Shown: piece by piece, positions 21,612 to 40,033 of the stretch
How the letters are laid out: the number at the start of each line of letters is the position of its first letter
How positions within the stretch are numbered: the stretch's first letter is position 1
From: an uncultured Planctomycetales bacterium
Lineage (GTDB): Bacteria; Omnitrophota; Gorgyraeia; Aquiviventales; Aquiviventaceae
Assembly: GCA_964373175.1 (NCBI GenBank)
Contig: CAYJTP010000001.1
Span: 41,654-105,653 of the forward strand
Direction: 5' to 3'
Length of the DNA: 64,000 bases
Program-made: the position numbers and the translations under genes
The notes under the pieces: model-generated
What the model was told of the DNA's origin: nothing
The model's database searches: none
Seen by the model: only the letters and a program-made list of their open reading frames with translations

Positions 21612-21613
21612 GC

Positions 21614-22510: not shown

Positions 22511-22530
22511 GAACGCGCTTCTCCTTTTTT

Positions 22531-24472: not shown

Positions 24473-25218
24473 GCGGGATGCCGCTGAACCATCGGCTGCG
24501 GCAGGACCTTGCCCTCGTTACGAGCTTTCATGAGGCGCTCCGCCACGTGAAGCGATTCCTCGTAGTCAATCTCCACACACGGCTCCTGAATCCGAAAGGG
24601 CAGAACCCGGGGGCCTGTCATCGAATTCAATTTCAGAATCGTCTGTGATCGTATGACGTCGACGTATCCGTTCTGCCAGAACATCTCGGGGAGCATCTGA
24701 CGTGGCTGGTTGTAAGGCTCCGGAACCCCGTCGAGCTCAAGCAGGGGCTTCAGATACCTGTCAACGATCCTCCACATCTTGTACGGAGTCTGAACCGGCC
24801 ACGAAACGGATCGAAGAGCGGTCGCCTCCTGATGCGCCTCCAGGGCGTCGATCGCCGCAGCGATCGTCTCGACGTTCCTGACCGGACAGGTGGGGCGAAG
24901 GTGAACCACGAGATCCGGTTCGTATCCCTGCTGCTCTTTGAGCCACCTCATCGCGTGCTGAAACACAGGCAGATCCGGTGTCCGGTCCTGGGCCAGCTCC
25001 GCAGGTCTGAGGAACGGGACCTCCGCTCCTCCCGCTAACGCGACCTGGGCAATTTCCGGATCATCGGTTGAAACCACGGTCCTCGTGATGTACCCGCACG
25101 CCAGGGCGTCTTGGATCGTGTAAACGATCAGAGGTTTTCCATACACAGACCGAAGATTTTTTCGCGGAATTCCCTTCGATCCGCCACGGGCCGGAATGAG
25201 CGCTAGGATCTCAGACAT
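24469..25218 (-). CDS. acylneuraminate cytidylyltransferase family (CMP-nonulosonic acid synthetase, NeuA/PseF-like)
   Basis: Start at ATG MSEILALIPARGGSKGIPRKNL...GKPLIVYTI...VPFLRP. The track ORF starts at an upstream GTG. Confidence 0.8.
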   Translation of the reverse strand: MSEILALIPARGGSKGIPRKNLRSVYGKPLIVYTIQDALACGYITRTVVSTDDPEIAQVALAGGAEVPFLRPAELAQDRTPDLPVFQHAMRWLKEQQGYEPDLVVHLRPTCPVRNVETIAAAIDALEAHQEATALRSVSWPVQTPYKMWRIVDRYLKPLLELDGVPEPYNQPRQMLPEMFWQNGYVDVIRSQTILKLNSMTGPRVLPFRIQEPCVEIDYEESLHVAERLMKARNEGKVLPQPMVQRHPA

Positions 25219-26036
25219 GTCAGGTGTTCTCGGATGAAGGACAGGTGACGCCACGCTGCCCGGATCGGATCGTTTCCCGGAGGGGTCTCCAGGATTAACG
25301 GACCCTGATATCCGACGTCTTGCAATGCCGCGAAGCAGGCTGGAAAATCGACCGCCCCGGATCCCAGCTCCACATTCGGTCCACCCAACGGCCGATCCTT
25401 GATATGGACACCGCCAATGAGGGGGCCCAGGAGTCGGATGTCAGCCGGGATGTCAAATCCTAACGCCGCGGCGTTGCCCACGTCATAGTAGGCCTTCACC
25501 AGTGGATGATCAGCCTGCCGAATCACGTCAAGGATCTGCCACGCCGGCTGATCCATCTCCAGCGCGAACTCCACTTCGGCGGCTTCAGCTTCGGGCAGGG
25601 CTTCTCGCAGGCACGCGAGGAAGGCTGACCTGTCGTCTGCCGTCTGCAGCGCCGCGTCCTCCAGGATCGGAATCCCAATGCGCTTCGCACCGACAGACTG
25701 GGCCGCCTGGATCAGGTCGTGAAGCAGGTGCAGACGCTGGGTGCGTGCGTTGGGCTGCCCACGAAAGAAGGGCTGGGTCTTGAAGACGTCGGCGCAGATC
25801 GAGGAGAGGGGCAGACCATCCCGACGCGCCAATGCCTTCAGCCTGTTTCTCCCCTCGTGAGACAGCAACGGGTTCGATGCGACGTCCTCTGCTGTCACCA
25901 AGAGCTCGAACGCCGTAAACCCAATCTCCGTCGCCCACGCAAACTCCTGTTCCCATGTCTGCACCGGGAAGATCTGAAGCCGACCGTCCATCGATCGCGA
26001 CAGACGTCCCTGGAGGATTCCAATGCGGTTCGTCAT
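25203..26036 (-). CDS. sugar-phosphate isomerase/epimerase (xylose-isomerase-like TIM barrel)
   Basis: 277 aa. TIM-barrel AP-endonuclease-2/xylose-isomerase-like pattern (GFTAFELL..., HIKD..., ILETP). Confidence 0.65.
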   Translation of the reverse strand: MTNRIGILQGRLSRSMDGRLQIFPVQTWEQEFAWATEIGFTAFELLVTAEDVASNPLLSHEGRNRLKALARRDGLPLSSICADVFKTQPFFRGQPNARTQRLHLLHDLIQAAQSVGAKRIGIPILEDAALQTADDRSAFLACLREALPEAEAAEVEFALEMDQPAWQILDVIRQADHPLVKAYYDVGNAAALGFDIPADIRLLGPLIGGVHIKDRPLGGPNVELGSGAVDFPACFAALQDVGYQGPLILETPPGNDPIRAAWRHLSFIREHLTCLRS

Positions 26037-27487
26037 GTCTCAGTGCGCGCTGGGACCAGGGTGACTGACCGACCATGCAAGGGGATCACATAGTCGCGCC
26101 GCGCTCGAGCCAACTGCACCTCGACCCTCCTCCGGAAGTTGGCTCCTGCCTCGTTCAGTTCACCAACAATGGCGTCGCTCACCTGGCGCACGGTCTGATC
26201 ATCAAAGTATTTGTCCGTGGTTTCCCATTTCCCATCGGGAACGATCCGCCATCGATGGAACGACCAATCTCGATGTACGCCGAGTTGCATCCGTACCCGT
26301 GCCAGGACGTTCGAGGAACGCGTCGACCTGGGCCACTGCACACCATAGGCCAATGCTTTGCATCGCTGCAGTCGAACCCTCTGACCGTCTCGGCCGTTGA
26401 GCGATGCCAAGATGCACGCGGCGACTCGGTCATGAGCACGACCATCGACCCGATAGAACCAATCTTGAATCACGTCGGTGAGGCGCTGTCGAATGTGCGT
26501 GGGAACCTCAAAGCCACCTCGCAAGATCTCCCTCAGGTTCCCCTTCAGCTCCTCCTCTGAACCACACGGAATGCTGACCGCCTCGACCGAGGGGATCTTC
26601 ACCGCATCAGGCATCCATGCTGGCGACAGGGTTGGCACACCGACCATGCCGGCTTCCACCCCTGTGGTACAGTTCTTCTGAATGAGGGCTTTGGACCGGA
26701 GGATCCAACCTTCCACCGTTCCTGACTTCACTAAGTGCAAGTTCGGCAGAGGCTCCAGCAGTTCCTGATACCTGTCAGTGCGTTCAAATGGATGAGGTCG
26801 ATAGACAAACGTCGCCGTGGGGAATTCCCGGGCCAGGCCGTTCGACAACGCGGTCAAGCCTCTCATCAACTGCCGCTCGCGCTGCTGAACGCCCAACAGT
26901 TCCTGCTGATCCTGCCCAAACCACTTGACGGTTGCCGCGACAACGCTTTCCGGAGTGAGCGCGATCGGGTTGGCAAGCGGAAAGTTTCCATTGATGAGCA
27001 CCAGGGGCTGTCCGTATCGCTCGACATACCCGGACGCTTCCAGAGCTGCCCGACGCCATGGCTCCACATAGAAATCCGATCGGGGCGTCCCGGTGAGCCT
27101 GACCTGTCGTGACGAATACCTGCCGCTGCGAAGGACGTAGTCGGCCAACAGCAGCCCCCAGCTACAGAAAAACTCCGCCTGGTCTCGCAACGTCTGGTCG
27201 TCACCCATCGCCTCGGCATACATCTCGATGCTCGGGAGCACCCCTCCCTCTTTGTCCAAGACACCAAACGGAATGCCCGCTGACACGAGGGCCCGGACAA
27301 AGGGTTCGTTCGTTTTATGCATCTGATTCACCAGCACAAAGTCTGGGGCCAAGGCGGGGATTTCGCTCCATCGCAGGTTGTATGGGACGAGATGTGACAC
27401 GATCCCTTCTTGGCACAGCCGATGGGCCACCAACACTGCGCTGGGGATGTCCCGGTAGGGACTATCCACGATTAACGCGACCCGCAT
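26033..27487 (-). CDS. surface-carbohydrate biosynthesis protein, putative GT-B-fold (CMP-sugar-dependent?) transferase
   Basis: 484 aa, soluble. Same tentative family as 19399..20679 (paired hydrophobic beta-alpha segments, TGVEAGMVGVPTL). Assignment is tentative. Confidence 0.5.
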   Translation of the reverse strand: MRVALIVDSPYRDIPSAVLVAHRLCQEGIVSHLVPYNLRWSEIPALAPDFVLVNQMHKTNEPFVRALVSAGIPFGVLDKEGGVLPSIEMYAEAMGDDQTLRDQAEFFCSWGLLLADYVLRSGRYSSRQVRLTGTPRSDFYVEPWRRAALEASGYVERYGQPLVLINGNFPLANPIALTPESVVAATVKWFGQDQQELLGVQQRERQLMRGLTALSNGLAREFPTATFVYRPHPFERTDRYQELLEPLPNLHLVKSGTVEGWILRSKALIQKNCTTGVEAGMVGVPTLSPAWMPDAVKIPSVEAVSIPCGSEEELKGNLREILRGGFEVPTHIRQRLTDVIQDWFYRVDGRAHDRVAACILASLNGRDGQRVRLQRCKALAYGVQWPRSTRSSNVLARVRMQLGVHRDWSFHRWRIVPDGKWETTDKYFDDQTVRQVSDAIVGELNEAGANFRRRVEVQLARARRDYVIPLHGRSVTLVPARTET

Positions 27488-29010
27488 CCTCGGAATCCTT
27501 CCTCGGCCACCCGCAGGGCTCCTCGTCCGTCGACCAGCTGCTGTCCTGTCGAGGACATGTGGTCCTGTAATTGTTCATCGTCTCGCAAGCGGTTCACCAA
27601 ACGCGACACACGGGACAGCAGCCTTGGATCCCCTGCCCGGCCGGCGAACTGAACGGCTCCGAGACCAGCCAGGGCCTTCAGTTGTGCTCGTTGATTCTCG
27701 GCCACCTCAATAGCGATCGTTGGACATCCGACACAGGCCAGCTCATAGAGCGATTGCCCTCCCGCGGTAATCGCCACATCGGCCTGCACCATGTAGTCAA
27801 CCAGTTGCGTGGGGCTCTCCACGACACACACGGGACGCCTGAGTCGCTTGACCAGCGATCTGATCCGTTCTGGGTTTTTGAAAAACGGCCCAAGGATCGC
27901 GGTCACGCTGAACTCGCCTTTTAATTCCTCTAAGAGACCCAGCAACCCTGGCATCAGGTGATGGGGATCCGAACCACCCCCGAGCATCACCAACACCTCC
28001 TGCACTCTTGGGCGTGGTCTCCGTCTGGGAGGACTCCAAAATTCCGGACGAAGCAGGGCGTACGCTGGACCCAACAGGAACCGCGTGTCTCCCGATGAGG
28101 AACGGTAGGACAGGTTGCGCGCATGGGCACCGGGGCTGACGACCAGCTGACAGGGAAACGGAAAACGGCCCAGATCGTCAATGGCCATGACGAACAAGCC
28201 GGCCGCTCGCAAACGAAGGAGGTACTCTGCGTCCACATGGTAGGAATCCACCACGACCCCTTCGCACCGACACCGGGCGGAGATCGCCAGCGTGTGTAAC
28301 AGGTCGGACGGTCCACCTCGTTCGATACCATTCATGCGCTCACTCTGAAAACCAAGGCCGGACAGGTGCCTCTCCACACCAGGGTCCCCATCGGACAGGA
28401 AGCAGGAACTGAGCCCCTTTTTGAATGCGAAGGCCTTTGCCAACGCACAGCAGCGCTGGAAATGGCCCAGCCCGCTCTTCGCGCTCGCGTCCACACGGAA
28501 CAGCATCTGTCGTGGTTCCTGTTGGCGATCCCGGTACACGAACTCCAGCACCTCCCCTTCAGCAGATCGCCGCGTGAGAGCCAACACGAACCCAACCCGC
28601 TCAAATGCCTTTCGAGAGGCGTCGTTACCCGCTTTGACCAGCGCCACAACCCGCTCGATCCGATCCCACTTCAGTGCCAACTGGCATACGCGGCGGATGG
28701 CGCTCACCCCATACCCCTGTCCTCGTTCGGCAGAATCCACGCTGAGGTGAATGAAGACGTCAGGAATCTTTGCCTCCAGCCGAACATACCCGATGGGGGT
28801 CTTTGATTCATTGAGGATGACGAACAGCGTCACCGTGGGATCGCGCAGGACCCGGTGGTACCAGTTCTTGTGGAGCGGATACTCAATGGGTGTCATGTCG
28901 AAGGAGGCCCGGCGCGTCTCCGGTTCGTTCCTCCACTCCCAGATACGCCGGCAATCCTCCGGTGTCCCTCGCCGCAGTGTGACCGTCGGCGATCCCGCCA
29001 CCTCACGCAA
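27472..29010 (-). CDS. bifunctional PseH-like GNAT N-acetyltransferase / PseG-like UDP-2,4-diacetamido-2,4,6-trideoxyhexose hydrolase (MurG-like GT-B)
   Basis: N-terminal GNAT (TPEDCRRIWEWRNEPE..., VALVKAGNDASRKAFERVGF). C-terminal MurG/PseG-like domain (LVMLGGGSDPHH..., ITAGGQSLYELACVGCPTIAI). The track ORF starts at GTG 29058; TTG at 29010 is preceded by AGGAGG with a 6-nt spacer and sits 2 nt after the upstream stop. Confidence 0.7.
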   Translation of the reverse strand: MREVAGSPTVTLRRGTPEDCRRIWEWRNEPETRRASFDMTPIEYPLHKNWYHRVLRDPTVTLFVILNESKTPIGYVRLEAKIPDVFIHLSVDSAERGQGYGVSAIRRVCQLALKWDRIERVVALVKAGNDASRKAFERVGFVLALTRRSAEGEVLEFVYRDRQQEPRQMLFRVDASAKSGLGHFQRCCALAKAFAFKKGLSSCFLSDGDPGVERHLSGLGFQSERMNGIERGGPSDLLHTLAISARCRCEGVVVDSYHVDAEYLLRLRAAGLFVMAIDDLGRFPFPCQLVVSPGAHARNLSYRSSSGDTRFLLGPAYALLRPEFWSPPRRRPRPRVQEVLVMLGGGSDPHHLMPGLLGLLEELKGEFSVTAILGPFFKNPERIRSLVKRLRRPVCVVESPTQLVDYMVQADVAITAGGQSLYELACVGCPTIAIEVAENQRAQLKALAGLGAVQFAGRAGDPRLLSRVSRLVNRLRDDEQLQDHMSSTGQQLVDGRGALRVAEEGFRGCGSR

Positions 29011-30061
29011 CGTCACCCTCCTGCAGCGCTGATTCAGCCGCAATGGCTCGCCGCACACGCCTGCCGAGCAGCTCGTCGAAGCGCTCCGGCTTCACTCCTC
29101 CATCCAAATTCCCACACCGCAGGACCGCGATGTTGTCGCGGGTCAAGACCTCTCCCGAGATGAGCTGCCGAACCGCGAAGATACTCCGGCGCGCAAACTT
29201 CCTCAACTCCGCCTCAACGGCCTGGACCGTCTTTTCACCGGATCCCAAGGCTCGTTCTCCTTCGCGGATCTTCTGAACCATCTGGTGCAATTCATGGGGC
29301 TCAAGCGCAAACGAGTGATCCGGCCCAGGCAGTGCGTTGCTTAAGGTGAAATGCTTTTCGATGAGGTCCGCCCCTAAGGCGACGGCGGACAAGGGCCCAA
29401 CAACCGGATCGCGCGAGTGGTCTGAGAATCCCACGGGGACACCAAATGCGGCTTTCATGCTCGCAACCGCCCGGAGATTCAGAGACTCCAGGGGTGCAGG
29501 ATACGCCGCCGTACAGTGCATCAAGATCAGGTCGCCGTTTCCGGTCCGTCGGAATTCCTCAACCGTGTTGGACACCTCCTCCAAGTTCGCGGCGCCCGTG
29601 GAGATGATCACCGGCTTGCCCTTCTTCGCTATATGTCGCACGAGGGGAATGTGGGTCATCTCATAGGAGGCAATCTTGAAGGCGACCACGTAGGGGTGAA
29701 GACGATCTGCCGTCTCTTCGTCGAACACAGAAGCAAGGAAGAGGATGTCTTTTTCCCGACAGTAGGCCGACAGCTCCGGCAACCATTCATAGGGCATCTG
29801 CATCTCGGCGATGATGTCATAGATGGAACGAGGATCCTTCAGGTACTCGCTGTGGCCCGCCCCTTTTGGATAGAGCGTCTCCGCACGGAACAGTTGGAAC
29901 TTCACGGCATCGGCGTTGGCAGAGGCCGCCACATCGATGAGTCGCTTGGCCTGCTGAAGACTGCCGTTATGGTTGCTGCCCGCCTCCGCGATGATGCAAC
30001 AAGGCTGCCCGTCGCCGATCCATCGACTGCCAATCCGCACCTTGGAAACCCCTGGTGTCAT
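29003..30061 (-). CDS. pseI: pseudaminic acid synthase / N-acetylneuraminate synthase family with C-terminal SAF domain (PseI-like)
   Basis: 352 aa. CCIIAEAGSNHNGSLQQAKRLID...DAVKFQ...GFSDHS plus a C-terminal SAF domain. Adjacent to the PseH/G fusion. Confidence 0.8.
   Translation of the reverse strand: MTPGVSKVRIGSRWIGDGQPCCIIAEAGSNHNGSLQQAKRLIDVAASANADAVKFQLFRAETLYPKGAGHSEYLKDPRSIYDIIAEMQMPYEWLPELSAYCREKDILFLASVFDEETADRLHPYVVAFKIASYEMTHIPLVRHIAKKGKPVIISTGAANLEEVSNTVEEFRRTGNGDLILMHCTAAYPAPLESLNLRAVASMKAAFGVPVGFSDHSRDPVVGPLSAVALGADLIEKHFTLSNALPGPDHSFALEPHELHQMVQKIREGERALGSGEKTVQAVEAELRKFARRSIFAVRQLISGEVLTRDNIAVLRCGNLDGGVKPERFDELLGRRVRRAIAAESALQEGDVA
29017..29022 (-). promoter_or_regulatory. 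Shine-Dalgarno AGGAGG for the TTG start of the PseH/PseG fusion
   Basis: Perfect AGGAGG 6 nt upstream of the in-frame TTG at 29010. Confidence 0.4.
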
Positions 30062-30095: not shown

Positions 30096-32093
30096 TTACG
30101 GTTCCCGGAATACCGGCTGCACCGGTTCTCCTTGCAACCGACTTCTCACATCGTCCGATCGAATAGCCGTGGCCAGAACCTGCAGGGCTTCCCGATACGC
30201 GCGAAGCGTCTGCTCGACATCCGCGTCGCTGTGGCTGTACGAGATATTCTGGCCTCCAGAAAACAGGATTCCCCTCTTGACGCATTCTTGTTGGAACAAA
30301 CTTTTGAGCGCCAGAGACTGTCTTTCCCTGTCGTCTGTGAAGACGATCACGGTGCGAGGCGGCAGACCGATGCACTCGGTGGTACGCTCTAAGCCCAACG
30401 CTCGTGCCAGCGCGTTGTATCCGTCCTTCAGCTTCCGTCCCTGGTTCCACAGGTGCTGGATCACGTCTTTCTCCCGAATCTCCGTAATCGTCGCCATGGC
30501 CGCAGCAAGGGACAGCGTCTCTCCTCCAAAGGTACATGAGAAGAAGACCTCGTCGAACAGCTTCATGATCTCTGCCCGACCAACCACAGCCGCCAGAGGA
30601 TAGCCGTTGGCCATGGCTTTACCAAGGCAGGTCAGATCTGGGATAACCCCAAGGAGCTCTTGCGCCCCACCTACGGCCAGACGAAACCCAGTGATCACCT
30701 CGTCAAAGATCAACACGGCACCCTCGCGGTGGGCCAGCTCCCGGACCTGTTGCAAGAAGCCCTCGAGGGGCTCCACCACGCCGACGGGCTCCATGATGAC
30801 GGCTGCCACTTGGCCAGGATGCTCGGCGAAGATGCGCTTCAAGCTGTCAAGGTTGTTGTACTCAAACGGGATCGTGAGTTCCCGGACCACCTTTGGTACA
30901 CCGTTGTTCCGACTTGTCGTGCCGATGTACCAATCCTGCCAGCCGTGGTACCCGCAGCAGGTGATCAGATCGCGTCCGGTGTAGGCACGCGCCACCCTCA
31001 CCGCTCCGGCCGTCGCGTCGGATCCGTTCTTGGCAAAGCGGACCATCTGCGCAGACGGAATGATGCGGGTGAGCATCTCGGCCAGCTCCACTTCCAAGGG
31101 ATGAGGCAAGGTGAAGGTCGTCCCGTCTTCGAGCTGACGCAGCACCGCCTTCGTGACCGACGGATAGTTGTGACCGAGAATCACTGGCCCCAGGGCCATC
31201 GGGTAATCAATGTACTCGTTCCCGTCGACGTCCCACACACGACACCCCTGGCCACGCTTCAAGAACACAGGAGATGCTCCTTGGATAAACTGCGTGGGGC
31301 CTTTGCTGAACGTCTGCGAACACGAGGGGATCAAAACGCTCGCCTTTTTCTTGAGTTCAAGGGAACGAGCGAGCCTGCGACGGTTGATCTGGGCAAGAGC
31401 GGGTTCTCGTTCCAGAAGCTGAAGGATCTCTTTGAAACCAAAGGAGAGCCCGTTCGAACTGAGTCTCGCATAGACCGAGCGGACAAACTCCAGATCAGAC
31501 GGTTCATCCACTGCCCAATGGAGATTCAGCGGGGAGAGATCGACCTCATGTTCGACATTGCGGGTGCGAAAGCGACCCGACGTGCGGAGGTACGGTGTGA
31601 CATGCTCCCGTTCCGCAGATGACCGGGCCTCCTGGTGGGCCCTCTCTAGGGCCTGAAAACTGAAGACCTCCACATCGAGACCATCGGGATAAGTATAGCG
31701 GAGCGTGTTGGTGACATAGTCGTAGCCTCCCTCACGGTACGCAGCCACAACCCGATCCAACACCTCTGGGTCGATCAGCGGACAATCCGCTGTGATGCGG
31801 GCGACCACATCGGCCTTAACCTGCTTGGCCACCTCGTACGTGCGACCCAGGACATCGTGTTCGCTACCCCGAAGACATCGAATCCCGTCCTTCCGGCAGA
31901 ACTCGACAATGGCGTCATCGATGGGCTCTGTCGAGGTCGCGACCACCACCTCGTCCACCTGCCGAGCTTGGCGGACCTGACCGACCACCCGCTTGAGCAG
32001 TGGCATTCCAGCGACGTCCATGAGGACCTTCCCGGGTAACCGGGTTGAGCCCATTCGCGCCTGGATCACGGCCACCACCCGCTCCTCCTTCAT
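30096..32093 (-). CDS. fusion of SpsF/NeuA-like cytidylyltransferase and class-III (glutamate-1-semialdehyde aminomutase-like) PLP aminotransferase
   Basis: 665 aa. N-terminus VAVIQARMGSTRLPGKVL (SpsF/CMP-sugar synthetase-like). C-terminus HNYPSV..., FDEVITGFRLAVGGAQ..., LTCLGKAMANGYPL (class III aminotransferase with PLP lysine). Confidence 0.75.
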   Translation of the reverse strand: MKEERVVAVIQARMGSTRLPGKVLMDVAGMPLLKRVVGQVRQARQVDEVVVATSTEPIDDAIVEFCRKDGIRCLRGSEHDVLGRTYEVAKQVKADVVARITADCPLIDPEVLDRVVAAYREGGYDYVTNTLRYTYPDGLDVEVFSFQALERAHQEARSSAEREHVTPYLRTSGRFRTRNVEHEVDLSPLNLHWAVDEPSDLEFVRSVYARLSSNGLSFGFKEILQLLEREPALAQINRRRLARSLELKKKASVLIPSCSQTFSKGPTQFIQGASPVFLKRGQGCRVWDVDGNEYIDYPMALGPVILGHNYPSVTKAVLRQLEDGTTFTLPHPLEVELAEMLTRIIPSAQMVRFAKNGSDATAGAVRVARAYTGRDLITCCGYHGWQDWYIGTTSRNNGVPKVVRELTIPFEYNNLDSLKRIFAEHPGQVAAVIMEPVGVVEPLEGFLQQVRELAHREGAVLIFDEVITGFRLAVGGAQELLGVIPDLTCLGKAMANGYPLAAVVGRAEIMKLFDEVFFSCTFGGETLSLAAAMATITEIREKDVIQHLWNQGRKLKDGYNALARALGLERTTECIGLPPRTVIVFTDDRERQSLALKSLFQQECVKRGILFSGGQNISYSHSDADVEQTLRAYREALQVLATAIRSDDVRSRLQGEPVQPVFREP

Positions 32094-33445
32094 CGGGGTT
32101 CCTCCACCGCAGGGTGGATCTCGGAACCGACTCTCCCGCAGTGATGATCGATAAAATCCACCAGGCCCTTGTCGCGAAACCGTTCGAGGTACGCAAGGAC
32201 CTTCTCATACGGCAGGCCGTGCTTCTGAGCGATATCAAGGACCGTCATGCGGCCGTCAAAATACCGTGGCAGACAATCCATCAGGTAGTTCCACTGTCGT
32301 TGCTCCATCTCCACCTCTGGCCGGATGGAAGGATCGGCCGTCGGGATGTACAGGTCATACTTCGGGTGACTCAGGGCCACCAAACCATCGAATTTTCGAT
32401 GCAGCCGGCTATTGGTTTCCAGGATTCTGACCAAGTCAAGCACCACGTCGACAGCCTCCTCCAAACGATGTTCCGAGATAATGCGGTCCGTATCATGGCT
32501 TGAGTGATACTCCGGAAAGGGAAAGCGAGAGAGCGAAATCGTGGGAATCTCGTACCCCGGCGCTTCCCACACGGTCTCATCGTTGCCGACGATCTTCCGA
32601 AACCGGTCAGCAAAGAAGTCAGGGTGCCGATGCCGCAGCACCTGATGCATCGCCCGGTCCAGCTCAGAGGCCCCTGTAAACGACTCTTGGAGGGCGAATC
32701 GATTGTCATTACCGAGGCACTCCAGAAAGACGGCTCCCCTGAAATGCGCCAATTCGGCCTTGGTCCGAGGCGCCAGATAGAAGACGGTCCCATGATGCTC
32801 TGGGGCAATGATGAGGCGATAGCTGTAGCGCCGCTCCGACTGGCTCTTCAGGTGTTTCATGACCTCCACACCAACGACGACCCCGGAGATGTCATCGTTG
32901 GCCTGACCCGCATGGCAATTGTGGGCGTTCAGGACGATGGTGTCCTGCGTATCTCCGGGAAGCAGGTAATCGCAGACCTTCATCGTGCCGGCCTCGTGGA
33001 CCGTCTCGAGGATCACCTCATACGTTCCTGGCTCCAGCTGATTGGACAAGGTCTGCGGCACAGAGAATCCCCAATCCTTCTGACCAACTTTGTAGTACAG
33101 GTCGCAATGATAGACCAGGGCGTCTGGCCATGTCGGATGGAAGAAGAGGTGCCGTTTCAACTCTTCTCGATCCACCGTGCCCTGAAACGGTTGTGAGTAG
33201 CCGATGACCCCAAGCGGATGCGCGAGGCCGTCATACACCACCCGACCGTGGCGACGGATCTCGGCGCGTCGGACTTCCCATTTCCACGGAATGACCCAGC
33301 CGTTATGTTCCTGACCAGACGCGTACGCATGGACCGTGAAGGGTAGCTCTTCACAGAGCAGTTCTGTACATCGGTCCAGGCCGCTGGAGACCGGAGCCAA
33401 CCGGAGAGGGTACAACGTTCGTAAGAGGTTCAGCATACCTGCCAT
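32090..33445 (-). CDS. DUF4910 / M28-aminopeptidase-like domain protein with C-terminal winged helix
   Basis: 451 aa. Central region with His/Asp/Glu-rich metal-site-like segments (AHNCHAGQANDDISGVVVG..., IAPEHHG). Architecture resembles aminopeptidase-like-domain proteins found in glycan loci. Tentative. Confidence 0.5.
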   Translation of the reverse strand: MAGMLNLLRTLYPLRLAPVSSGLDRCTELLCEELPFTVHAYASGQEHNGWVIPWKWEVRRAEIRRHGRVVYDGLAHPLGVIGYSQPFQGTVDREELKRHLFFHPTWPDALVYHCDLYYKVGQKDWGFSVPQTLSNQLEPGTYEVILETVHEAGTMKVCDYLLPGDTQDTIVLNAHNCHAGQANDDISGVVVGVEVMKHLKSQSERRYSYRLIIAPEHHGTVFYLAPRTKAELAHFRGAVFLECLGNDNRFALQESFTGASELDRAMHQVLRHRHPDFFADRFRKIVGNDETVWEAPGYEIPTISLSRFPFPEYHSSHDTDRIISEHRLEEAVDVVLDLVRILETNSRLHRKFDGLVALSHPKYDLYIPTADPSIRPEVEMEQRQWNYLMDCLPRYFDGRMTVLDIAQKHGLPYEKVLAYLERFRDKGLVDFIDHHCGRVGSEIHPAVEEPR

Positions 33446-33450
33446 GAGGG

Positions 33451-34032
33451 TTAGGACGTGTCCTCGGGTCGAACCAATCCAAACAACACCTCGTCCACGT
33501 AGGGGCCGTTACAGGCATACTGCTGAGGCCGAAGCCCCTCTTGGATGAACTGGGCCTTTCGGAGCGCCTTGGCGGACCCGATGTTGGTGGCGTAGCAGCC
33601 TGCGGTCACCTTGTGGAGCCCCAGCTCACGGAAGGCGTACTCAGTCACGAGCCGAATCGCCTCCGTGGCGTACCCCTGCCCCCACGCCGATTTCTCGCCG
33701 ATCAGGAAGCCCAGGTCCGCCGTCCGGTGAGCCCAGTTGATCGGCCCCAATTTAATATTGCCGATGTGCCGATCCCCCGCCTTCAGGATGATGGCCAGGA
33801 ACAGATAGTCAGGGTTTCGCGTGATCTGGGTCACGTAGTCCTCCAACGAAGCTCGGGTGTGCTGGACAAAGCGGCATTCCAGGTATTGGGTCACCTCTTG
33901 ATCATTCATCCAGCGGCAATACGCCTCCGTCACATCAGCAGTCTGTATTGGTCGAAGAGAGATCCGCTTGCCTGCAAGGAGCGGCCGGTGAACGGCAACG
34001 GTCCCGCTCGGGTCGTTGGCGATCGTGGTCAT
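33451..34032 (-). CDS. GNAT-family N-acetyltransferase (RimL-like)
   Basis: 193 aa. HIGNIKLGPINWAHRTADLGFLIGEKSAWGQGYATEA is the RimL-like acyl-CoA-binding core. Confidence 0.75.
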   Translation of the reverse strand: MTTIANDPSGTVAVHRPLLAGKRISLRPIQTADVTEAYCRWMNDQEVTQYLECRFVQHTRASLEDYVTQITRNPDYLFLAIILKAGDRHIGNIKLGPINWAHRTADLGFLIGEKSAWGQGYATEAIRLVTEYAFRELGLHKVTAGCYATNIGSAKALRKAQFIQEGLRPQQYACNGPYVDEVLFGLVRPEDTS

Positions 34033-35069: not shown

Positions 35070-35900
35070 CTAGGAGACCCGAACGTTGAGTCCCGCCTGT
35101 TTCATGTAGGCCCTGGCTTTAATGACGCTCTGGTCCGTAAAGTGGAAAATGGAGGCCGCCGCAACGGCGGAGGCTCCTCCGAGCGTCACCGCTTCCACGA
35201 GATGCTGGAGCGTTCCTGCCCCACCAGCCACAATGACCGGGCAGTCCACGGCATCGGCGACGGCTCGAATCAGCCTTAGGTCATAGCCCAATCCGGTTCC
35301 GTCCCGATCGATGGACGTCAAAAAGATCTCCCCTGCCCCTGCCTCGAGCGCAGTCCGAGTCCAGCAGACCGGTTCGAGACCTGTCGGCTCCTTGCCCCCC
35401 TGTATGAACACCTCGTAACGATCCGGCACAACCTGCTTCGCATCGATGGCCACGACCACACTTTGGCTGCCGAAACGGACCGCGCAGTCCCCGATCAGCT
35501 TGGGGTTTAAGACGGCCGCCGTGTTGATGGCAACTTTATCCGCTCCTGCCTCAAGCAACCTTCGAGCATCCTCAACCGTTCTCACGCCGCCGCCAACGGT
35601 CAGCGGCATGAAGCAGGCCTCGGCCGCCTTCGCAACGACTTCGAGAAGGGTGGAACGATTTTCCTGGGTCGCTGTAATGTCCAGGAATACCAACTCATCG
35701 GCCCCTTGCGCGTCGTAGACCTTTGCAGCGGTGACTGGGTGCCCCACGTCCCGAAAATTATCGAACCGGATGCCCTTGACGCAGCGACCGTTCGACACGA
35801 GCAATGTCGGAATGAGGCGAATCTTCAGCGGGCACACGCACTCCGCCGTCGACCCTTCGACGCGGGCCACGGCCTCCCCGGCCCGCCTGGAGAACAGCAT
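35070..35900 (-). CDS. HisF-like imidazole-glycerol-phosphate-synthase cyclase subunit homolog (WbuY-like)
   Basis: [22 protein letters not shown]...DELVFLDI...AINTAAV matches HisF. Start uncertain: ATG at 35900 chosen, GTG at 35840 or ATG at 35996 possible. The track ORF (to 36086) carries a Pro/Arg-rich extension. Confidence 0.7.
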
Positions 35901-36004
35901 GCCGGGGCGGGCTGGCCGTGGGCCCTTGCTCAGGATGTCACCCCGAATGGGCGAAGAACAGGTGCCACCCCGCATTGGCGGGGTGGGGCTCCACATCTGG
36001 AGTG

Positions 36005-36646
36005 CTAAGTCGGCCATGTGACAAAGTTGCGCAGAAGTTTCAGACCCGCCATCTGGCTTTTCTCTGGATGGAATTGCACAGCCCACAGATTCCGGTCATG
36101 GAGGGCGACAGCGACCGGTCCACCATAGTTGCAGGTTGCGATCACGAACTCCGGGCGGTCACTCACAAAGTGATAACTGTGTGCGAAGTACAGGACCGGT
36201 TCCGGGCCTAAACCCTGAAAGAGCCAACTCTCGGTTGTGGGGTAGACCGTATTCCATCCCATATGCGGGACACGCAACTGTCGGCTGTTATTCAACGGTC
36301 TAACCCGGCCGGGGAGCCAGCGGAGCCCCTCATGAAAGCCGTGTTCGTATCCCTCATGGGCAAGGATCTGCATGCCCAGGCAGATTCCAAGAAACGGTTT
36401 TCCCTTTTGTCGAACCTCCTCATCCAGGACATCAATCCACCCCCCAGACTTCAAGTTCTTCATGCATTCCCCAAACGCCCCGACCCCGGGTAGCACAATC
36501 CGATCGGCTGCTTCGAGATCCTCAGGCCGGTCCATCACGGTGACCTGCGCACCCACGGTCTCCAAGGCCTTTGCGACAGAACGGAGGTTCCCGGTCCCGG
36601 CATTAATGACCGCCACACTGACCCTGGAAGATGAGCGGGGATTCAT
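36005..36646 (-). CDS. HisH-like class-I glutamine amidotransferase subunit homolog (WbuX-like)
   Basis: [14 protein letters not shown], catalytic GICLGMQ (Cys), and HFHPEKS (His/Glu). Start at the ATG overlapping the upstream TGA (ATGA). Confidence 0.8.
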
Positions 36647-37803
36647 TCGCGCGGCTGAGTCCGATCCCAAAGCGGTTGGTCCCAAAGAGCCGTTCCCCGC
36701 TCCGCGTTGGATGGATCGTGCTGGTAGGGGGCGACCGCATGGCCTAAGGCGATCTTCATGAACTCCTCTTCCGTAATCCCGACGGCCTTTAAGAAAAGAT
36801 CGAGGCTGGCCGGACGTTTGCCGTCGTACGCCGCCTCAAGCCGGAGCGCTTCCTCCCGTGAGGTCATCTTCCCTTCCCGCAGGTCTTTACTCACCAGATG
36901 GGCCGTCCGTCCAAACCCGCGCTTGATGAACTTCAGATAATCCCGCACCCCCTGCATGAAGCACTCGATCTTTTCATACCCGTATTCCGGCGGGACCCCC
37001 TCCACCTGTTCTTCCTTCCATCCAAGCTCTCGTTTGATGATCTCAGCTTGCGCCTTGGTCTCCCAGGGGATGTAGCTCCCCAAACAGATGGAGCGGTAAT
37101 TCAGCGCTCGTAATTCCTCGATCGGCGGGTACGCAAAGGGCTCCAGGTCCCGCATCGTGATCCCTTTCCCCAGCATCCCCAGCATATCCTCGGCGGTGAT
37201 TCCCAGGTTGACGAACCGGTTAAAGCGACGCTCGTCTACTTCTTCCTCTTCCTGATACGTGTAGTAGCTCGTATACTCAGCGCTGGGCTCTCCCCAGATG
37301 ACCAAGGGGACTTTGAACTTCACCGCAATGTGCATCGGATAGGCGAAGATCCCGGTATGGCAGTGCCAGCAGAAGTCCCCCTTGCGGATCAGCGCCTCCA
37401 GCATGAGCCGTCGGACAACCTGCCAGTTTGGACGAAACTTCAAGTAGTCGACCCCCAACGTCTTCATGGTCCGCTCAGTATTCGCCAGCACGGTTGGACG
37501 CATAAAGCCGTGATCGAAGGTGACCACCAGCGGCTTGAGATGGTAGCGCACCACCACGGTGTAGAGGGTAAACGTGCTGTCCTTGCCACCAGAAAACGGC
37601 ACAAGACAGTCATAAGGGTGCTTGTCGCGGTAGTGATCGAGGATCGCGATCAGCTCCTTCTCCTTCTGCTGCCAATCGATGTGCTTCTGTTTGTACTCAA
37701 TCTGGCGGCAGACGTTGCAAACGCCCTCCCCATCAAACACGATCGTCTCCTGGGTTTCCGGCAGCACACAACGGCTGCACCGTTTGAGCTCGGTCATCGG
37801 CAT
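36643..37803 (-). CDS. N-acetyl sugar amidotransferase, PP-loop ATP pyrophosphatase family (PseA/WbuZ-like)
   Basis: 386 aa. N-terminal Cys4 (CSRCVLP...CNVC), then PP-loop LVPFSGGKDST. This family pairs with HisH/HisF-like proteins for acetamidino-sugar formation. Confidence 0.8.
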   Translation of the reverse strand: MPMTELKRCSRCVLPETQETIVFDGEGVCNVCRQIEYKQKHIDWQQKEKELIAILDHYRDKHPYDCLVPFSGGKDSTFTLYTVVVRYHLKPLVVTFDHGFMRPTVLANTERTMKTLGVDYLKFRPNWQVVRRLMLEALIRKGDFCWHCHTGIFAYPMHIAVKFKVPLVIWGEPSAEYTSYYTYQEEEEVDERRFNRFVNLGITAEDMLGMLGKGITMRDLEPFAYPPIEELRALNYRSICLGSYIPWETKAQAEIIKRELGWKEEQVEGVPPEYGYEKIECFMQGVRDYLKFIKRGFGRTAHLVSKDLREGKMTSREEALRLEAAYDGKRPASLDLFLKAVGITEEEFMKIALGHAVAPYQHDPSNAERGTALWDQPLWDRTQPRE

Positions 37804-38834
37804 ACCTCAGATGGAGCCACGCTGGGAACAGCTCCGGCTGCGCAGGCCACTTCCCGGCCAAGACGGGCTGACGCGTGGGCCGCGACGACCACTTCAAGGA
37901 CCCGAAGGGCGTCCTCTCCAGACACGCGGGGGACGGCTTCTCCCTTGAGACAGCTCAGGAATTCCTTGAGCTCCTCCAGATACAGCACGTTTGGATCGAG
38001 AGGGGTCGGGATCGTCTCCCAGCAGCGCGTGTCGGCCCGGTACCATCGCAGGCCCTCCAGATAGTCCCAGATGAGCGTGCCCTCTGTGCCGATGACTTTG
38101 CAGGTCCGCGTGTAGGCCCGTTGGGCGCAGTCCAGGTGGAGGCTCGCGCGCCAGCCATTGCTCAACGACAGCCAGAGCAGCGCAAGATCCTCCGCATCCA
38201 TTTGTAAATCGCTCAGATGTGCGGTCAGCGCGGTGACCGTTTCCACCTCGCCCGCAAGCCAGCGCACATAATCAATTTCATGGGAGGCGTCGAGCAGTAT
38301 GCCCCCTCCCAATGCCGCGTGAGCCGTATAACTTTCCTCGTAGTGTTGAGCGGGACGCCAGTCAGGAAGGTACTGGCCGAACTCGGCCTGGATGAACAAC
38401 ACGCGACCCACCCGGCCTTCATCGACCCAAGCCTTGAGGCGCTGGAGACCAGGATGGAACCGGAGCTGATACCCGACCTGAATCACCCGAGAACTCAGGC
38501 GGGCCATGGCGCACAGATCGGCCACGCCCTCGAGCGTGTGAGAGATCGGCTTTTCAATGAACACGTGAGCCCCATGCTGGATGGCTTGCCGAGCAGGCTC
38601 CACGTGAAGAGCAGGAGGCGTGCAAATCAACACCCCTTGGGGCAGACGATCGAACCCCTCCGCGATGCTGCAACAAGGCACGACGCCCAACTCACGAACC
38701 ACCCCGTTGAGCCGATCCGGCAGAGGATCATAGGCAAACAATTCCTTGATCCCTAAGGTCCGGAGGTTGAGAAGATGTCGCCGGCCGATGGAGCCGCATC
38801 CTAAGACGAAGAGTCGTGGGGGGCTATTGACCAT
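37794..38834 (-). CDS. Gfo/Idh/MocA-family oxidoreductase
   Basis: RLFVLGCGSIGRRHL N-terminus, EKPIS motif. Start ATG at 38834 (alternative at 38840). The track ORF is longer. Confidence 0.8.
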   Translation of the reverse strand: MVNSPPRLFVLGCGSIGRRHLLNLRTLGIKELFAYDPLPDRLNGVVRELGVVPCCSIAEGFDRLPQGVLICTPPALHVEPARQAIQHGAHVFIEKPISHTLEGVADLCAMARLSSRVIQVGYQLRFHPGLQRLKAWVDEGRVGRVLFIQAEFGQYLPDWRPAQHYEESYTAHAALGGGILLDASHEIDYVRWLAGEVETVTALTAHLSDLQMDAEDLALLWLSLSNGWRASLHLDCAQRAYTRTCKVIGTEGTLIWDYLEGLRWYRADTRCWETIPTPLDPNVLYLEELKEFLSCLKGEAVPRVSGEDALRVLEVVVAAHASARLGREVACAAGAVPSVAPSEVCR

Positions 38835-40023
38835 ACGCATCCAGCACCTTGGTGACCGCTTCGATGCAATCTTCCACGTCCGCATCAGTCATGCTGTGAA
38901 ACAGCGGCAAGCTGATCAGGCGACGATAGGCCTCCTCGGCCACGGGGTATTCCCCTCCTCGGTAACCAAACCGGTGCCGATAGTACGGGTGCAGATGGAC
39001 CGGGATGTAGTGGACATTGACCCCCAGGCCTTCGGCCCGCAGCGCTTTGAAGATCTCCGCCCTCTCCACGTGCAGCTTCGACAAGTCCAGTTGAACAGGG
39101 TACAGATGCCACGCCGGTGTGGCATCGGGTCGCACCACCGGTGGCATCACCCCTCCCAGGTCCTTGAAGACCCTGGTATAGCGCATCGCAATCTGCTGAC
39201 GGCGCTCCAGATTTCGATCAAGCCGCTTGAGTTGGGATAACCCCAGCGCACATCCGATATCTGAGAGGCGATAGTTATACCCCAACGCGACCATCTCATA
39301 GTACCAGTCACCGCCCGCTTCACGCTCGTGGACGTCGTGCTCGATCCCCTGGTTGCGGAAGATGCGCAGTTGACGGGCAAATTCCGCGTTGTCCGTCGTC
39401 ACCATGCCCCCCTCTCCCGTCGTGATATGCTTCACGGGATGAAAACTGAAGACGGTCATATGGCTGACCGACCCGACCCGGCGACCTCGAAGCTCTGCGC
39501 CCAGCGCATGACAGGCATCCTCAATCACGACCAGTCCCTGTCGTTCGGCCAACGCGACGAGCGCATCGAGATCGGCCGGATGCCCCGCGTAGTCCACCGG
39601 GAGGATGGCTTTTGTCCTGGCTGTGACCGCCTGCGCGACACGGTTCGGATCAAGGTTCAACGTATCGGGGCAGACGTCGCAGAACACGGGCAACGCCCCT
39701 TGGTACAACAGGGCATTGGCCGTCGCGCAGAACGTCAGCGGGGTGGTCACCCCTTCATCCCCAGGCCCCAACCCAGCCGCAAAGACCGCTCCATGAAGCG
39801 CGGCAGTGCCGGAAGAGAAGGCCACAGCGTAACGACTCCCGACACGAGCCGCGAGGGCCGCTTCGAACTGCTCGACGACCGGACCGGTCGTCAACCAGTC
39901 CGACCGCAGGACTTCCAGGACCCCCTGGAGATCCTCCTCGAGCACCTCATGGTGCCCATACGGCAACCGTCTCTGGCGGACCGGTTGTCCCCCGTCGACC
40001 GCCAAGGTAGGTAGCGCCTTCAT
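38824..40023 (-). CDS. pseC: DegT-family aminotransferase (PseC-like UDP-4-amino-4,6-dideoxy-N-acetyl-beta-L-altrosamine transaminase)
   Basis: VLEEDLQGVLEVLRSDWLTTGP..., and FSFHPVKHITTGEGG (PLP lysine). Immediately downstream of the PseB-like gene. ATG at 40023; the preceding GTG at 40026 is used by the track. Confidence 0.8.
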   Translation of the reverse strand: MKALPTLAVDGGQPVRQRRLPYGHHEVLEEDLQGVLEVLRSDWLTTGPVVEQFEAALAARVGSRYAVAFSSGTAALHGAVFAAGLGPGDEGVTTPLTFCATANALLYQGALPVFCDVCPDTLNLDPNRVAQAVTARTKAILPVDYAGHPADLDALVALAERQGLVVIEDACHALGAELRGRRVGSVSHMTVFSFHPVKHITTGEGGMVTTDNAEFARQLRIFRNQGIEHDVHEREAGGDWYYEMVALGYNYRLSDIGCALGLSQLKRLDRNLERRQQIAMRYTRVFKDLGGVMPPVVRPDATPAWHLYPVQLDLSKLHVERAEIFKALRAEGLGVNVHYIPVHLHPYYRHRFGYRGGEYPVAEEAYRRLISLPLFHSMTDADVEDCIEAVTKVLDAYGQ

Positions 40024-40033
40024 CACCGGGGAC

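Follow-up and report, generated by a model that had tools for sequence, protein, structure and literature searches.

A cytidylyltransferase–class-III aminotransferase fusion of a widespread family in a pseudaminic acid-type gene cluster

We have found that the fusion protein encoded on the minus strand at 30096..32093 of the window (the whole 64,000-nucleotide stretch of DNA that was analysed) is a further member of a widespread, generically annotated family, an ordinary member and no one-off invention. It joins an N-terminal cytidylyltransferase (CT) domain of the FlmC/SpsF type to a class-III pyridoxal phosphate (PLP) aminotransferase (AT) domain, and its relatives keep company with an oxidoreductase in gene clusters for pseudaminic acid (Pse)-type nonulosonates. 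We suggest, with a probability of roughly 0.4, that it has two functions in a Pse-type pathway, tailoring the sugar and activating it: a CMP-nonulosonate synthetase would be combined with an aminotransferase that converts a hydroxyl to an amine together with an oxidoreductase partner.

The fusion gene and its cluster

According to the ORF list and translation, a single reading frame of 665 codons runs from ATG to stop over exactly this interval; on the plus strand the same interval contains many stops. The sequence-only reading had described a single 665-aa polypeptide containing both domains and the motif LGKAMANGYPL, without stating the strand, and Pfam and the reading frame bear it out. The gene is divided as follows.

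30096..32093, minus strand: whole fusion gene (665 aa plus stop); ORF and translation, Pfam CTP_transf_3 and Aminotran_3, identical protein on 3 contigs
31386..32093, minus strand: FlmC/SpsF-type CT domain, aa 1–236; PF02348, 6oew, FlmC, motifs
31308..31385, minus strand: short interdomain linker, about aa 237–262; homologue alignment, low pLDDT starts here
30099..31307, minus strand: class-III PLP AT domain, about aa 263–665; PF00202, NF004856, alignments to glutamate-1-semialdehyde aminomutase (GSAM)

In the full-length protein, Pfam places CTP_transf_3 at residues 7–172 (E 6.9e-36, 124.5 bits) and Aminotran_3 at residues 275–563 (E 4.5e-54, 184.1 bits against a cutoff of 30.5), and there is no stop and no change of frame between the domains. 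A sequencing frameshift is unlikely because three independent contigs of NCBI and Logan assemblies encode the identical 665-residue protein; given this and hundreds of fused homologues, we reject an artefact as the source of the fusion, and the break between the domains that had been named beforehand as a refutation is absent. The start codon overlaps the stop codon of the upstream gene by 4 nt (ATGA) and is preceded by a GGAGG-like site. GC content is uniform at about 59–60% across the whole cluster, and a recent horizontal insertion of the fusion gene finds no compositional signal. The linker is ~22 residues shorter than in all 15 of the 15 aligned homologues and lacks their conserved segment, RNEGYYxSLAxEPPxPxxxR. 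In an AlphaFold monomer model (pTM 0.57), the CT domain has a pLDDT of about 90, residues 263–329 fall below 50, as expected for a dimeric enzyme modelled as a monomer, and the packing between the domains carries no confidence. A PDB fold search with the fusion returned single-domain GSAM-like matches only.

The gene lies beside a NeuB gene within a Pse cluster, which agrees with the nonulosonic acid context proposed from the letters alone. The cluster is arranged as follows.

40034..41035, minus strand: PseB, UDP-GlcNAc 4,6-dehydratase (inverting); TIGR03589, 489 bits, cutoff 408
38824..40026, minus strand: PseC aminotransferase (DegT family); TIGR03588, 466 bits, cutoff 423.5
37794..38885, minus strand: GFO1, Gfo/Idh/MocA oxidoreductase (GFO), predicted redox partner of the fusion; Pfam, match to the module's GFO
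35070..37803, minus strand: WbuX amidotransferase and HisH/HisF-like pair (acetamidino-forming set); TIGR03573, TIGR01855, TIGR03572/TIGR00735
34029..35063, minus strand: formyltransferase-like protein with N- and C-terminal domains, candidate N-formylase; Pfam Formyl_trans_N/C
33451..34032, minus strand: GNAT_a, extra GNAT N-acyltransferase, candidate acylase of a newly introduced amine; Pfam Acetyltransf_3
32090..33445, minus strand: DUF4910/M28-like protein, translationally coupled to the fusion gene; Pfam, 4-nt ATGA overlap
29003..30061, minus strand: NeuB1, NeuB/PseI-type nonulosonate synthase, directly downstream of the fusion; Pfam NeuB and SAF
27472..29058, minus strand: GNAT-PseG fusion (PseH-like acetyltransferase and UDP-sugar hydrolase); TIGR03590, 163.7 bits, cutoff 153.6, N-terminal GNAT
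26033..27487, minus strand: TIGR04396 surface-carbohydrate/BFO_1060-like glycosyltransferase, candidate nonulosonate transferase; NCBIfam

Six genes lie between GFO1 and the fusion, which counts against a partnership of the two. GFO1 is nevertheless the best match in the window to the GFO found next to CT-AT, or fused with it, at 47 other loci (median identity 43%, against 35% for GFO2); judged by this comparison it is the ortholog of the GFO of the module. No aldo-keto reductase (AKR) was found among the scanned window genes. Homologues of the DUF4910/M28-like protein occur in only 9 of the 82 related loci described below, and a homologue of GNAT_a (35% identity) is present in Pseudosulfitobacter.

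The two catalytic halves

The CT half carries the motifs QARMGSTRLPGK (R13, R18, K22), DCP (D103–P105) and EREHVT, with R13, R18, K22 and D103-C104-P105 invariant in 63 homologues. PDB entry 6oew, a 'cytidylyltransferase', aligns to residues 6–235 (E 2e-38), and C. crescentus FlmC is 38.7% identical over 230 residues (E 6e-44). The match to PF02348, the end-to-end homology to FlmC and 6oew and the complete set of nucleotide-binding motifs place the domain with the FlmC/SpsF-type enzymes of the CTP_transf_3 subfamily (COG1861-like), which have in common with it the motifs QARxxSxRLPGK, DCP and EHVT, the location of their genes in Pse/Leg clusters and a presumed activating-enzyme role. They differ in that each stands alone at about 240 aa and lacks an aminotransferase domain, and their own CMP-transferase activity is deduced from genetics and reconstitution: six Caulobacter genes, with FlmC as their sole cytidylyltransferase, are enough to give E. 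coli Pse-dependent flagellin glycosylation (PMC7591256), and B. subtilis spsF is needed for the transfer of legionaminic acid, not for its synthesis (PMC7439481).

The PseF equivalog TIGR03584 is not reached (35.6 bits for the N-terminal domain alone, cutoff 205.7), and the CT half may do the job of PseF though it belongs to a different subfamily. A second cytidylyltransferase within about 10 kb is present in only ~7 of the 82 related loci and absent from about 75, and on a Pseudosulfitobacter plasmid PGAP names pseB, pseC, pseG and pseI and no pseF. A cultured carrier of the module is Pseudosulfitobacter pseudonitzschiae SMR1, with the related protein WP_089422657.1. From homology and gene content, the CT half is most likely the putative CMP-nonulosonate synthetase of its pathway. 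The window holds three further CT genes (24469–25254, 45837–46559 and 47917–49698) and a second NeuB, and therefore the fused CT need not be the sole activator here.

In the AT half, the PLP lysine is K492 (codon 30618–30620) in the motif LGKAMANGYPL at residues 490–500, accompanied by D464 (FDEV), GSDAT and a family-specific CCGYHGWQDWYIGTT segment. K492 (GKAMANG) and D464 align with the lysine and aspartate of GSAM, and these and the other PLP-site residues are invariant in the 63 homologues. The earlier description of this half as GSA-aminomutase-like fails both in its HemL scores and in its motifs. The fusion scores 284.9 bits against the HemL equivalog TIGR00713 (cutoff 527.3), 302.8 against PRK00062 (cutoff 398) and 265.7 against PRK12389 (cutoff 637). 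Alignments of five GSAM structures to the AT start at GSAM residue 31 or later, past the 'SPVRAF' motif, in whose place the AT has SCSQTFSKGP, and the loop after YHG is ~10 residues shorter. In GSAM the arginine of 'SPVRAF' contacts the substrate carboxylate, and the loop gates the active site. NF004856 (PRK06209), which is named 'GSA aminomutase', is a near miss at 461.7 bits against a cutoff of 486 (residues 238–664, profile positions 5–439 of 450), and the name is probably a misnomer for this sugar-cluster clade. The AT shares with HemL and NF004856 a common fold and roughly 32–36% identity, and differs from them in the absence of the Arg32 motif, the shortened gating and phosphate loops, the sugar-pathway context and scores below both cutoffs. 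A true HemL of tetrapyrrole synthesis, joined to the CT by chance, would explain why the best PDB and NCBIfam names for the C-terminal half are GSAM, but this is scarcely conceivable given the missed TIGR00713 and PRK00062 cutoffs, the substrate-arginine motif that lies outside the alignment, the shorter gating loop and the invariable synteny with Pse genes. These profile and motif comparisons set the AT half apart from the HemL-type aminomutases.

The conserved module and a proposed reaction

The sequence-only reading took the architecture to be unusual. The same PF02348 plus PF00202 arrangement is present in 120 of the 120 best matches (62–73% identity), relatives are spread over at least 585 species genomes and more than 15 phyla, and JGI annotates it as 'glutamate-1-semialdehyde 2,1-aminomutase/spore coat polysaccharide biosynthesis protein SpsF'. 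In the best 80 genome loci the whole query is covered, its CT and AT parts being either fused or direct neighbours. The window protein has the same two-domain order over its full length at the family criterion of at least 46% identity to other members, and it has the family synteny, with PseB, PseC, PseG, NeuB and a GFO in the window. A common annotated family of known function had been named as a further refutation; the family is indeed common and annotated, and an experimental function was not found in the searchable literature, where a search for characterised CT-AT proteins or class-III aminotransferases in Pse/Leg clusters gave descriptive mentions only and the SugarBase preprint contained nothing on either.

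Across 82 related loci, CT and AT are fused in 55, carry an additional N-terminal GFO in a GFO-CT-AT triple fusion in 21, and are separate adjacent genes in 6; separate CT and AT genes occur in Halorussus and Aeromonas too. Either a GFO or an AKR, never both, adjoins or is fused to CT-AT in 77 of the 82, and the filling of one slot by two unrelated families argues that a redox step is required. Gene content was counted in the 61 of these loci with complete flanks: PseB is present in 55, PseC in 56, NeuB in 58 and GNAT-PseG in 51, which with the oxidoreductase and CT-AT make up the minimal cluster. An extra GNAT lies beside CT-AT in 27 of the 61 and sugar N-formyltransferases occur in 6. The presence of PseC in the window and in 56 of 61 loci rules out the class-III aminotransferase as its replacement, and CT-AT is not among the six canonical Pse enzymes, so that its position outside the canonical pathway, claimed previously, stands.

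In the reaction that we propose, GFO1 would oxidise the nonulosonate at a secondary hydroxyl, giving a ketone, the AT, acting as an ordinary transaminase rather than an aminomutase, would convert the ketone to an amine, and the FlmC/SpsF-type domain would catalyse the PseF-equivalent step, CTP + nonulosonate -> CMP-nonulosonate + PPi; either activation or amination could come first. The most plausible position, chosen on chemical grounds alone, is C8: free secondary hydroxyls are found in Pse at C4 and C8 only, and a 4-ketone linked to CMP would be prone to elimination. The product would be a 5,7,8-triamino-3,5,7,8,9-pentadeoxy-nonulosonate, whose new amine the neighbouring GNAT and/or formyltransferase may N-acylate. 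Two points count against the proposal: the extra GNAT is missing from more than half of the loci, and AKRs are usually reductases, better fitted to reducing a ketone than to forming one. A more specific suggestion, which we offer tentatively and regard as doubtful, is that the trio of oxidoreductase, CT and AT serves specifically to make CMP-activated 8-amino-8-deoxy-pseudaminic acids (5,7,8-triamino nonulosonates).

A coupling of CMP activation to amination of a nonulosonate, as suggested earlier, would fit the oxidoreductase partner and the GFO-CT-AT triple fusions. The substrate channelling suggested with it fares worse, given that in other proteins the fusion partner of the CT domain is PseB, PseC, PseG, GNAT, a formyltransferase, GFO or AKR, that CT and AT can be separate genes, and that the AlphaFold model shows no confident packing of the domains. 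Because the CT domain joins so many different Pse enzymes, fusion alone does not prove consecutive steps.

Known systems and alternative readings

Chemical precedents for the proposed reaction come from A. baumannii, Tenacibaculum and the Kdo8N pathway. The A. baumannii prophage protein EpaA, a CTP_transf_3 and AKR fusion, acts with EpaB to convert Pse5Ac7Ac to its 8-epimer, as established by NMR (PMC12053666). The likeness lies in a CTP_transf_3 domain fused to nonulosonate tailoring, a second redox enzyme and C8 of Pse; the differences are that the partner domain is an aldo-keto reductase with no PLP enzyme and that the outcome is epimerisation without amination. The window fusion falls outside the EpaA type, its C-terminal domain being Aminotran_3 and not Aldo_ket_red, and a search of a phage collection for EpaA-like CTs with the window CT domain gave no match. 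An 8-amino-3,5,7,8,9-pentadeoxy-nonulosonic acid occurs naturally in Tenacibaculum (Flexibacter) maritimum (PMC3210612); the O-antigen paper on this species makes no mention of a cytidylyltransferase and states no class for the aminotransferase of its second locus. The Shewanella Kdo8N pathway (KdnB, KdnA, KdsB) combines C8 oxidation, transamination and CMP activation of an ulosonic acid, and differs in its eight-carbon sugar, primary alcohol, Fe-ADH-type oxidase, unrelated aminotransferase family and unfused enzymes. Gattis and colleagues reportedly described in 2013 how transamination by KdnA follows KdnB in this pathway, with KdsB as the activating cytidylyltransferase. The first step is the oxidation of Kdo at C8 by KdnB (PMC5125639). 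Unfused AKR–pseF–class III aminotransferase–pseG arrangements are found in Aeromonas group I flagellin glycosylation islands (PMC7874193) and in the O-antigen clusters of Legionella pneumophila Sg6/Sg12 (PMC3694923); gene set and order between pseC and pseG are the same, compared by published arrangement, and the difference is that CT and AT are separate genes. This unfused arrangement recurs at the 6 loci with separate genes and in Halorussus.

In another reading the CT would still be the CMP-Pse synthetase, and the AT and oxidoreductase might act on an N-acyl side chain or other substituent instead of the C9 backbone, for example an oxidised and transaminated 3-hydroxybutyryl group. Derivatives of Pse commonly differ in their N-acyl groups, and unexplained Pse derivatives of 376, 403 and 422 Da are present in Aeromonas strains that have related islands, the first of which (376.14 Da) by our own arithmetic fits Pse5Ac7Ac +C2H4O2 without extra nitrogen. 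We consider this unlikely nonetheless, as the acyl-CoA/ACP machinery for unusual acyl groups is absent from most related loci; we also know of no such natural amino-acyl product. The AT could be a PLP epimerase or racemase working on a free C5 or C7 amine, or could edit stereochemistry with the oxidoreductase, to yield a Pse stereoisomer. The PDB matches of the class-III fold do include isoleucine 2-epimerase, amino-acid racemases and a C-6' epimerase/aminotransferase, and 8-epimerisation of Pse by a CT-AKR fusion and an SDR is established. The best sequence and fold neighbours of the AT are, however, transaminases and GSAM, C8 epimerisation has no need of PLP, and an extra GNAT and formyltransferases are found alongside the module, all of which makes this reading improbable.

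A further reading places the AT and oxidoreductase earlier, on the UDP-hexose, in an alternative C4 or C3 amination or a ketoreduction, with the fusion reflecting only a shared pathway. Triads of GFO dehydrogenase, aminotransferase and acetyltransferase acting on UDP-sugars are well known (WbpB/WbpE/WbpD type), and the fusion of CT to PseB, PseC, PseG or GNAT elsewhere means that partners need not be consecutive. Against it, amination at C4 is already covered, because PseC is kept in 56 of 61 loci and is above its equivalog cutoff in the window, an amine at hexose C3 would sit where the nonulosonate comes to have its ring oxygen (O6), and the known UDP-sugar aminotransferases are DegT-type and not class III. 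We judge it quite improbable.

Pse-type sugars decorate flagella, capsules, O-antigens and archaeal glycoproteins and are targets for vaccines, phage receptors and antibodies. The oxidoreductase–CT–AT module recurs in hundreds of Pse clusters, those of Aeromonas and Legionella among them, and this implies that many organisms make a tailored derivative and not plain Pse5Ac7Ac. Defining the CT-AT reaction would provide a gene marker for genome-based prediction of sugars, an explanation of unassigned glycan masses on Aeromonas flagellins and enzymes for new nonulosonates. If the 8-amino route is correct, triamino sugars would constitute a widespread, overlooked third branch of nonulosonates on the surfaces of bacteria and archaea, most of them uncultured, in more than 15 phyla, it would supply the biosynthesis so far missing for the T. 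maritimum 8-amino sugar, and some of the odd-mass Pse derivatives on Aeromonas flagellins might be accounted for.

The RkpN/RkpO pair of S. fredii was considered as a characterised fusion and rejected, RkpN being of the PseF type and RkpO a PseG. A homologue of the class-III aminotransferase in NGR234 (45% identity) is located outside any Pse cluster. At one related locus (L064), an AKR+CT protein is encoded directly beside a CT-AT fusion.

The fusion gene and its distribution

The sequence-only reading described a single polypeptide joining a cytidylyltransferase half (CT) to a class-III PLP aminotransferase half (AT), and this description is correct. Pfam locates CTP_transf_3 at residues 7–172 (E 6.9e-36) and Aminotran_3 at residues 275–563 (E 4.5e-54) of the one product, and translation of the plus strand over the same interval is interrupted by stops. 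The motif LGKAMANGYPL is found in the translation as that reading gave it, the Schiff-base lysine being K492 in full-length numbering.

30096–32093, minus strand: CT-AT fusion gene, ATG start, 665 codons, uninterrupted
31308–31385, minus strand: interdomain linker, ~22 residues fewer than in each of the 15 aligned homologues

Nor is there the stop or frameshift between the domains against which the same reading had warned: the frame is unbroken, and three independent contigs yield the identical 665-residue protein. The ATG shares an ATGA with the stop codon of the gene before it and is preceded by a GGAGG-like site, and base composition is uniform over the whole locus. Thus the fusion is genuine, and a frameshift artefact as its source is ruled out. 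Judged by its sequence, the sole local oddity of the gene is the short linker, an in-frame deletion reproduced on the three contigs, which lacks the segment RNEGYYxSLAxEPPxPxxxR conserved in 15 of 15 aligned homologues.

The architecture, supposed to be unusual, is in fact frequent, mainly in uncultured lineages. In a collection of 5.8 billion proteins, all of the best 120 matches carry PF02348 and PF00202 together (62–73% identity, mostly 680–690 aa); for several the JGI annotation reads [quoted passage not shown], and two, of ~1035 aa, have an extra N-terminal Gfo/Idh/MocA oxidoreductase (GFO) domain. When one genome per species was scanned, relatives turned up in at least 585 genomes. The best 80 of these relatives cover the whole query at 46–69% identity, are nearly all from MAGs and come from Dadabacteria, Thermodesulfobacteriota, Dehalococcoidia, Omnitrophota, Planctomycetes, Acidobacteriota, Verrucomicrobiota, Elusimicrobia, Myxococcota, Alpha- and Betaproteobacteria, Actinomycetota, Woesearchaeota and others; Bathyarchaeota and haloarchaea are also found among the relatives. 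The CT-AT of the window is a routine member of this widespread family, which is annotated generically only.

The conserved module and the genes of the window

CT-AT is embedded in a minus-strand glycan locus of great length, in which the genes of the pseudaminic acid (Pse) pathway and their neighbours are as follows.

Minus strand, in the direction of transcription: Wzm/Wzt ABC exporter, PseB, PseC, GFO1, WbuX and HisH/HisF-like amidotransferases, formyltransferase-like protein, GNAT, DUF4910/M28-like protein, CT-AT, NeuB/PseI-type synthase, GNAT-PseG fusion, TIGR04396/BFO_1060-like putative transferase
41004–43214: Wzm/Wzt ABC exporter, ATPase with a Wzt_C glycan-end-binding domain
32090–33445, minus strand: DUF4910/DUF2172/M28-like protein with a winged-helix tail, translationally coupled to CT-AT by the ATGA overlap
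45837–54416, minus strand: third sugar-acid module, upstream of the CT-AT module; CT, Kdo-transferase-like Glycos_transf_N protein, 593-aa CT+methyltransferase fusion, GT2 with a partial NeuB-like N-terminus, shikimate-dehydrogenase-like protein, DAHP/KdsA-type synthase, another Gfo/Idh/MocA
20682–26036, minus strand: second ulosonate module, directly downstream of the CT-AT module; xylose-isomerase-like TIM barrel, PseF-like CT2, GFO2, SDR, second NeuB, methyltransferase
17310–19397, minus strand: SAM methyltransferase and APH-type phosphotransferase (kinase) domains fused in one 695-aa protein
Near this fusion: GT4 glycosyltransferase, further methyltransferase, DegT aminotransferase (14102–15310), flavin amine oxidase (12640–14022)

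All ORFs of 82 non-redundant related loci were clustered, 61 of which have at least 5 kb on both sides. In these complete loci PseB is present in 55, PseC in 56, NeuB in 58 and the GNAT-PseG fusion in 51, the usual order being PseB, PseC, oxidoreductase, CT-AT, GNAT-PseG, NeuB. Over all 82 loci, 55 have CT and AT fused, another 21 have the two joined behind an N-terminal GFO, and in six they are separate neighbouring ORFs. An oxidoreductase adjoins or is fused in 77 of the 82 and is either a Gfo/Idh/MocA protein or an aldo-keto reductase (AKR; Pfam-confirmed), never both. A second, separate cytidylyltransferase is detectable in only ~7 of the 82.

In the window, PseB and PseC each score above their equivalog cutoffs, and six genes are inserted between GFO1 and CT-AT. 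Judging from median identity to 47 module GFOs (43% for GFO1, 35% for GFO2), GFO1 is orthologous to the GFO of the module. The extra ~190-aa GNAT, homologous to 33451–34032 of the window, is found alongside the module in 27 of the 61 complete loci, and sugar N-formyltransferases occur in some related loci; PIG-L de-N-acetylases (13/61) and NodB-type deacetylases (11/61) also recur, a hint that an amine is re-acylated. Homologues of the DUF4910/M28-like protein are found in only 9 of the 82 loci.

The Wzm/Wzt exporter with its Wzt_C domain points to an O-antigen- or capsule-like polymer that depends on an ABC transporter and ends in a defined cap, and the third module suggests a pathway to an eight-carbon or other ulosonate. 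In the second module, CT2 falls below the PseF cutoff (137 against 205.7 bits) and NeuB, of 298 aa, is without a SAF domain; the CT-GFO pair of this module recurs close to the fusion in a few other loci (L001, L003, L015 and L071). A ~583-aa family (cl15), without a match in a Pfam search, follows NeuB in 33 loci, mainly of Acidobacteriota; it may be a nonulosonate transferase. Plasmid pSMR1-1 of Pseudosulfitobacter pseudonitzschiae carries pseB, pseC, AKR, GNAT, a hypothetical gene, the CT-AT fusion, pseG and pseI, with no pseF among the annotated genes of the cluster. In Halorussus aquaticus, the three genes for GFO, CT and AT are unfused and lie next to NeuB, DegT and PseB-like genes.

Assignment of the two halves

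The CT domain fails the PseF equivalog test (35.6 bits, cutoff 205.7), resembles KdsB-type enzymes weakly and is matched over its full length by the uncharacterised PDB entry 6oew. The C. crescentus FlmC sequence, translated from the synthetic operon in the supplement of PMC7591256, aligns with it at 38.7% identity over 230 residues (E 6e-44) and with a stand-alone Roseiarcus CT, located before an AT-III gene, at 49.6%. In B. subtilis, spsF is required for legionaminic acid transfer and dispensable for synthesis (PMC7439481). Given the FlmC homology and this precedent, and since most loci have no second CT, the CT half is probably a CMP-nonulosonate synthetase. CT-AT may be likened to an FlmC/SpsF-type activating enzyme to which, as in EpaA, a tailoring enzyme has been attached.

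A census of the CT family gave 3,886 representatives at E ≤ 1e-30. The nearest 150 include 81 stand-alone proteins, ~28 CT-AT and further fusions: GFO-CT, AKR-CT, CT-AKR, CT-CT, CT-PseG, CT/GNAT, CT-PseC, PseB-CT and CT-formyltransferase. Since CT is fused to nearly any pathway enzyme, shared pathway membership is supported, and the fusion is no proof of the channelling once proposed. The top CT-domain matches in the 50%-identity library (P0124–P0127, 480–515 aa) are tandem FlmC/SpsF-type CT-CT proteins.

The best-named matches of the AT half are "GSA aminomutase". A HemL role is opposed by its sub-cutoff scores (285 bits against 527 for hemL TIGR00713; 462 against 486, narrowly below, for NF004856, the closest model), by alignments to GSAM structures that begin after the N-terminal SPVRAF motif, and by shorter loops, namely that following YHG (by ~10 residues) and the EPVxGNAG loop. 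Across 63 homologues the PLP lysine, the aspartate and ~150 further positions never vary, which shows that selection maintains the domain as an enzyme. Its structural neighbours include transaminases of cyclic or polyol ketones and amines (PctV, FumI, aminoglycoside C-6′ aminotransferases). In the AlphaFold model of CT-AT, CT has a pLDDT of ~90 and the AT core is confident; residues 263–329 are poor and pTM is 0.57, and we therefore claim no fixed interdomain geometry. Stand-alone AT homologues (~45% identity) occur on rhizobial megaplasmids, as in Sinorhizobium fredii NGR234 pNGR234b (L086, 9001–10293), where no Pse gene lies closer than 9 kb; some members of the AT clade thus belong to no nonulosonate cluster.

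The protein lies outside HemL, PseF (TIGR03584) and, narrowly, NF004856, and is a clear member of an unnamed CT-AT(III) fusion family of Pse clusters, for which we found no published biochemical characterisation in the searchable literature.

A proposed reaction

A transaminase requires a carbonyl, and the near-obligatory oxidoreductase is its obvious source; two unrelated families fill this slot, and the GFO-CT-AT triple fusions would tie the three activities together. The secondary hydroxyls of the Pse backbone are at C4 and C8 only. Of these C8 is favoured, as a ketone at C4 would lie beta to the anomeric carbon that bears CMP and would be prone to elimination. Precedents for redox reactions at this end of an ulosonic acid are provided by EpaA (a CTP_transf_3-AKR fusion) with EpaB, which epimerise Pse at C8 (PMC12053666), by KdnB, which oxidises Kdo at C8 as the first step toward Kdo8N (PMC5125639), and by the natural 8-amino-3,5,7,8,9-pentadeoxy-nonulosonic acid of Tenacibaculum maritimum (PMC3210612). 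We tentatively propose, at a probability of roughly 0.4 and with every catalytic step inferred, that Pse or CMP-Pse would be oxidised to an 8-keto form and this converted to an 8-amino form, which the extra GNAT or formyltransferase would optionally N-acylate, the fused CT providing CMP activation. The value of the scheme is as a testable prediction for the whole CT-AT(III) family rather than for this locus.

Aeromonas flagellins carry unexplained Pse derivatives of 376, 403 and 422 Da in strains of the genus. An odd nominal mass such as 403 Da means an odd number of nitrogens; a third amine and an acetamidino group would both fit, and the mass does not tell them apart. An unfused arrangement (pseB, pseC, aldo/keto reductase, pseF, class III aminotransferase, pseG) occurs in the Aeromonas group I flagellin glycosylation islands (PMC7874193), and the same set in the Legionella pneumophila Sg6/Sg12 O-antigen clusters (PMC3694923), both described there without an assigned function.

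In one uncultured Acidobacteriota locus (L064), a 554-aa ORF at 8305–9970, directly upstream of CT-AT, matches both AKR and CT probes and is possibly EpaA-like; epimerase-type and aminotransferase-type tailoring enzymes may occur together there, each with its own CT domain.
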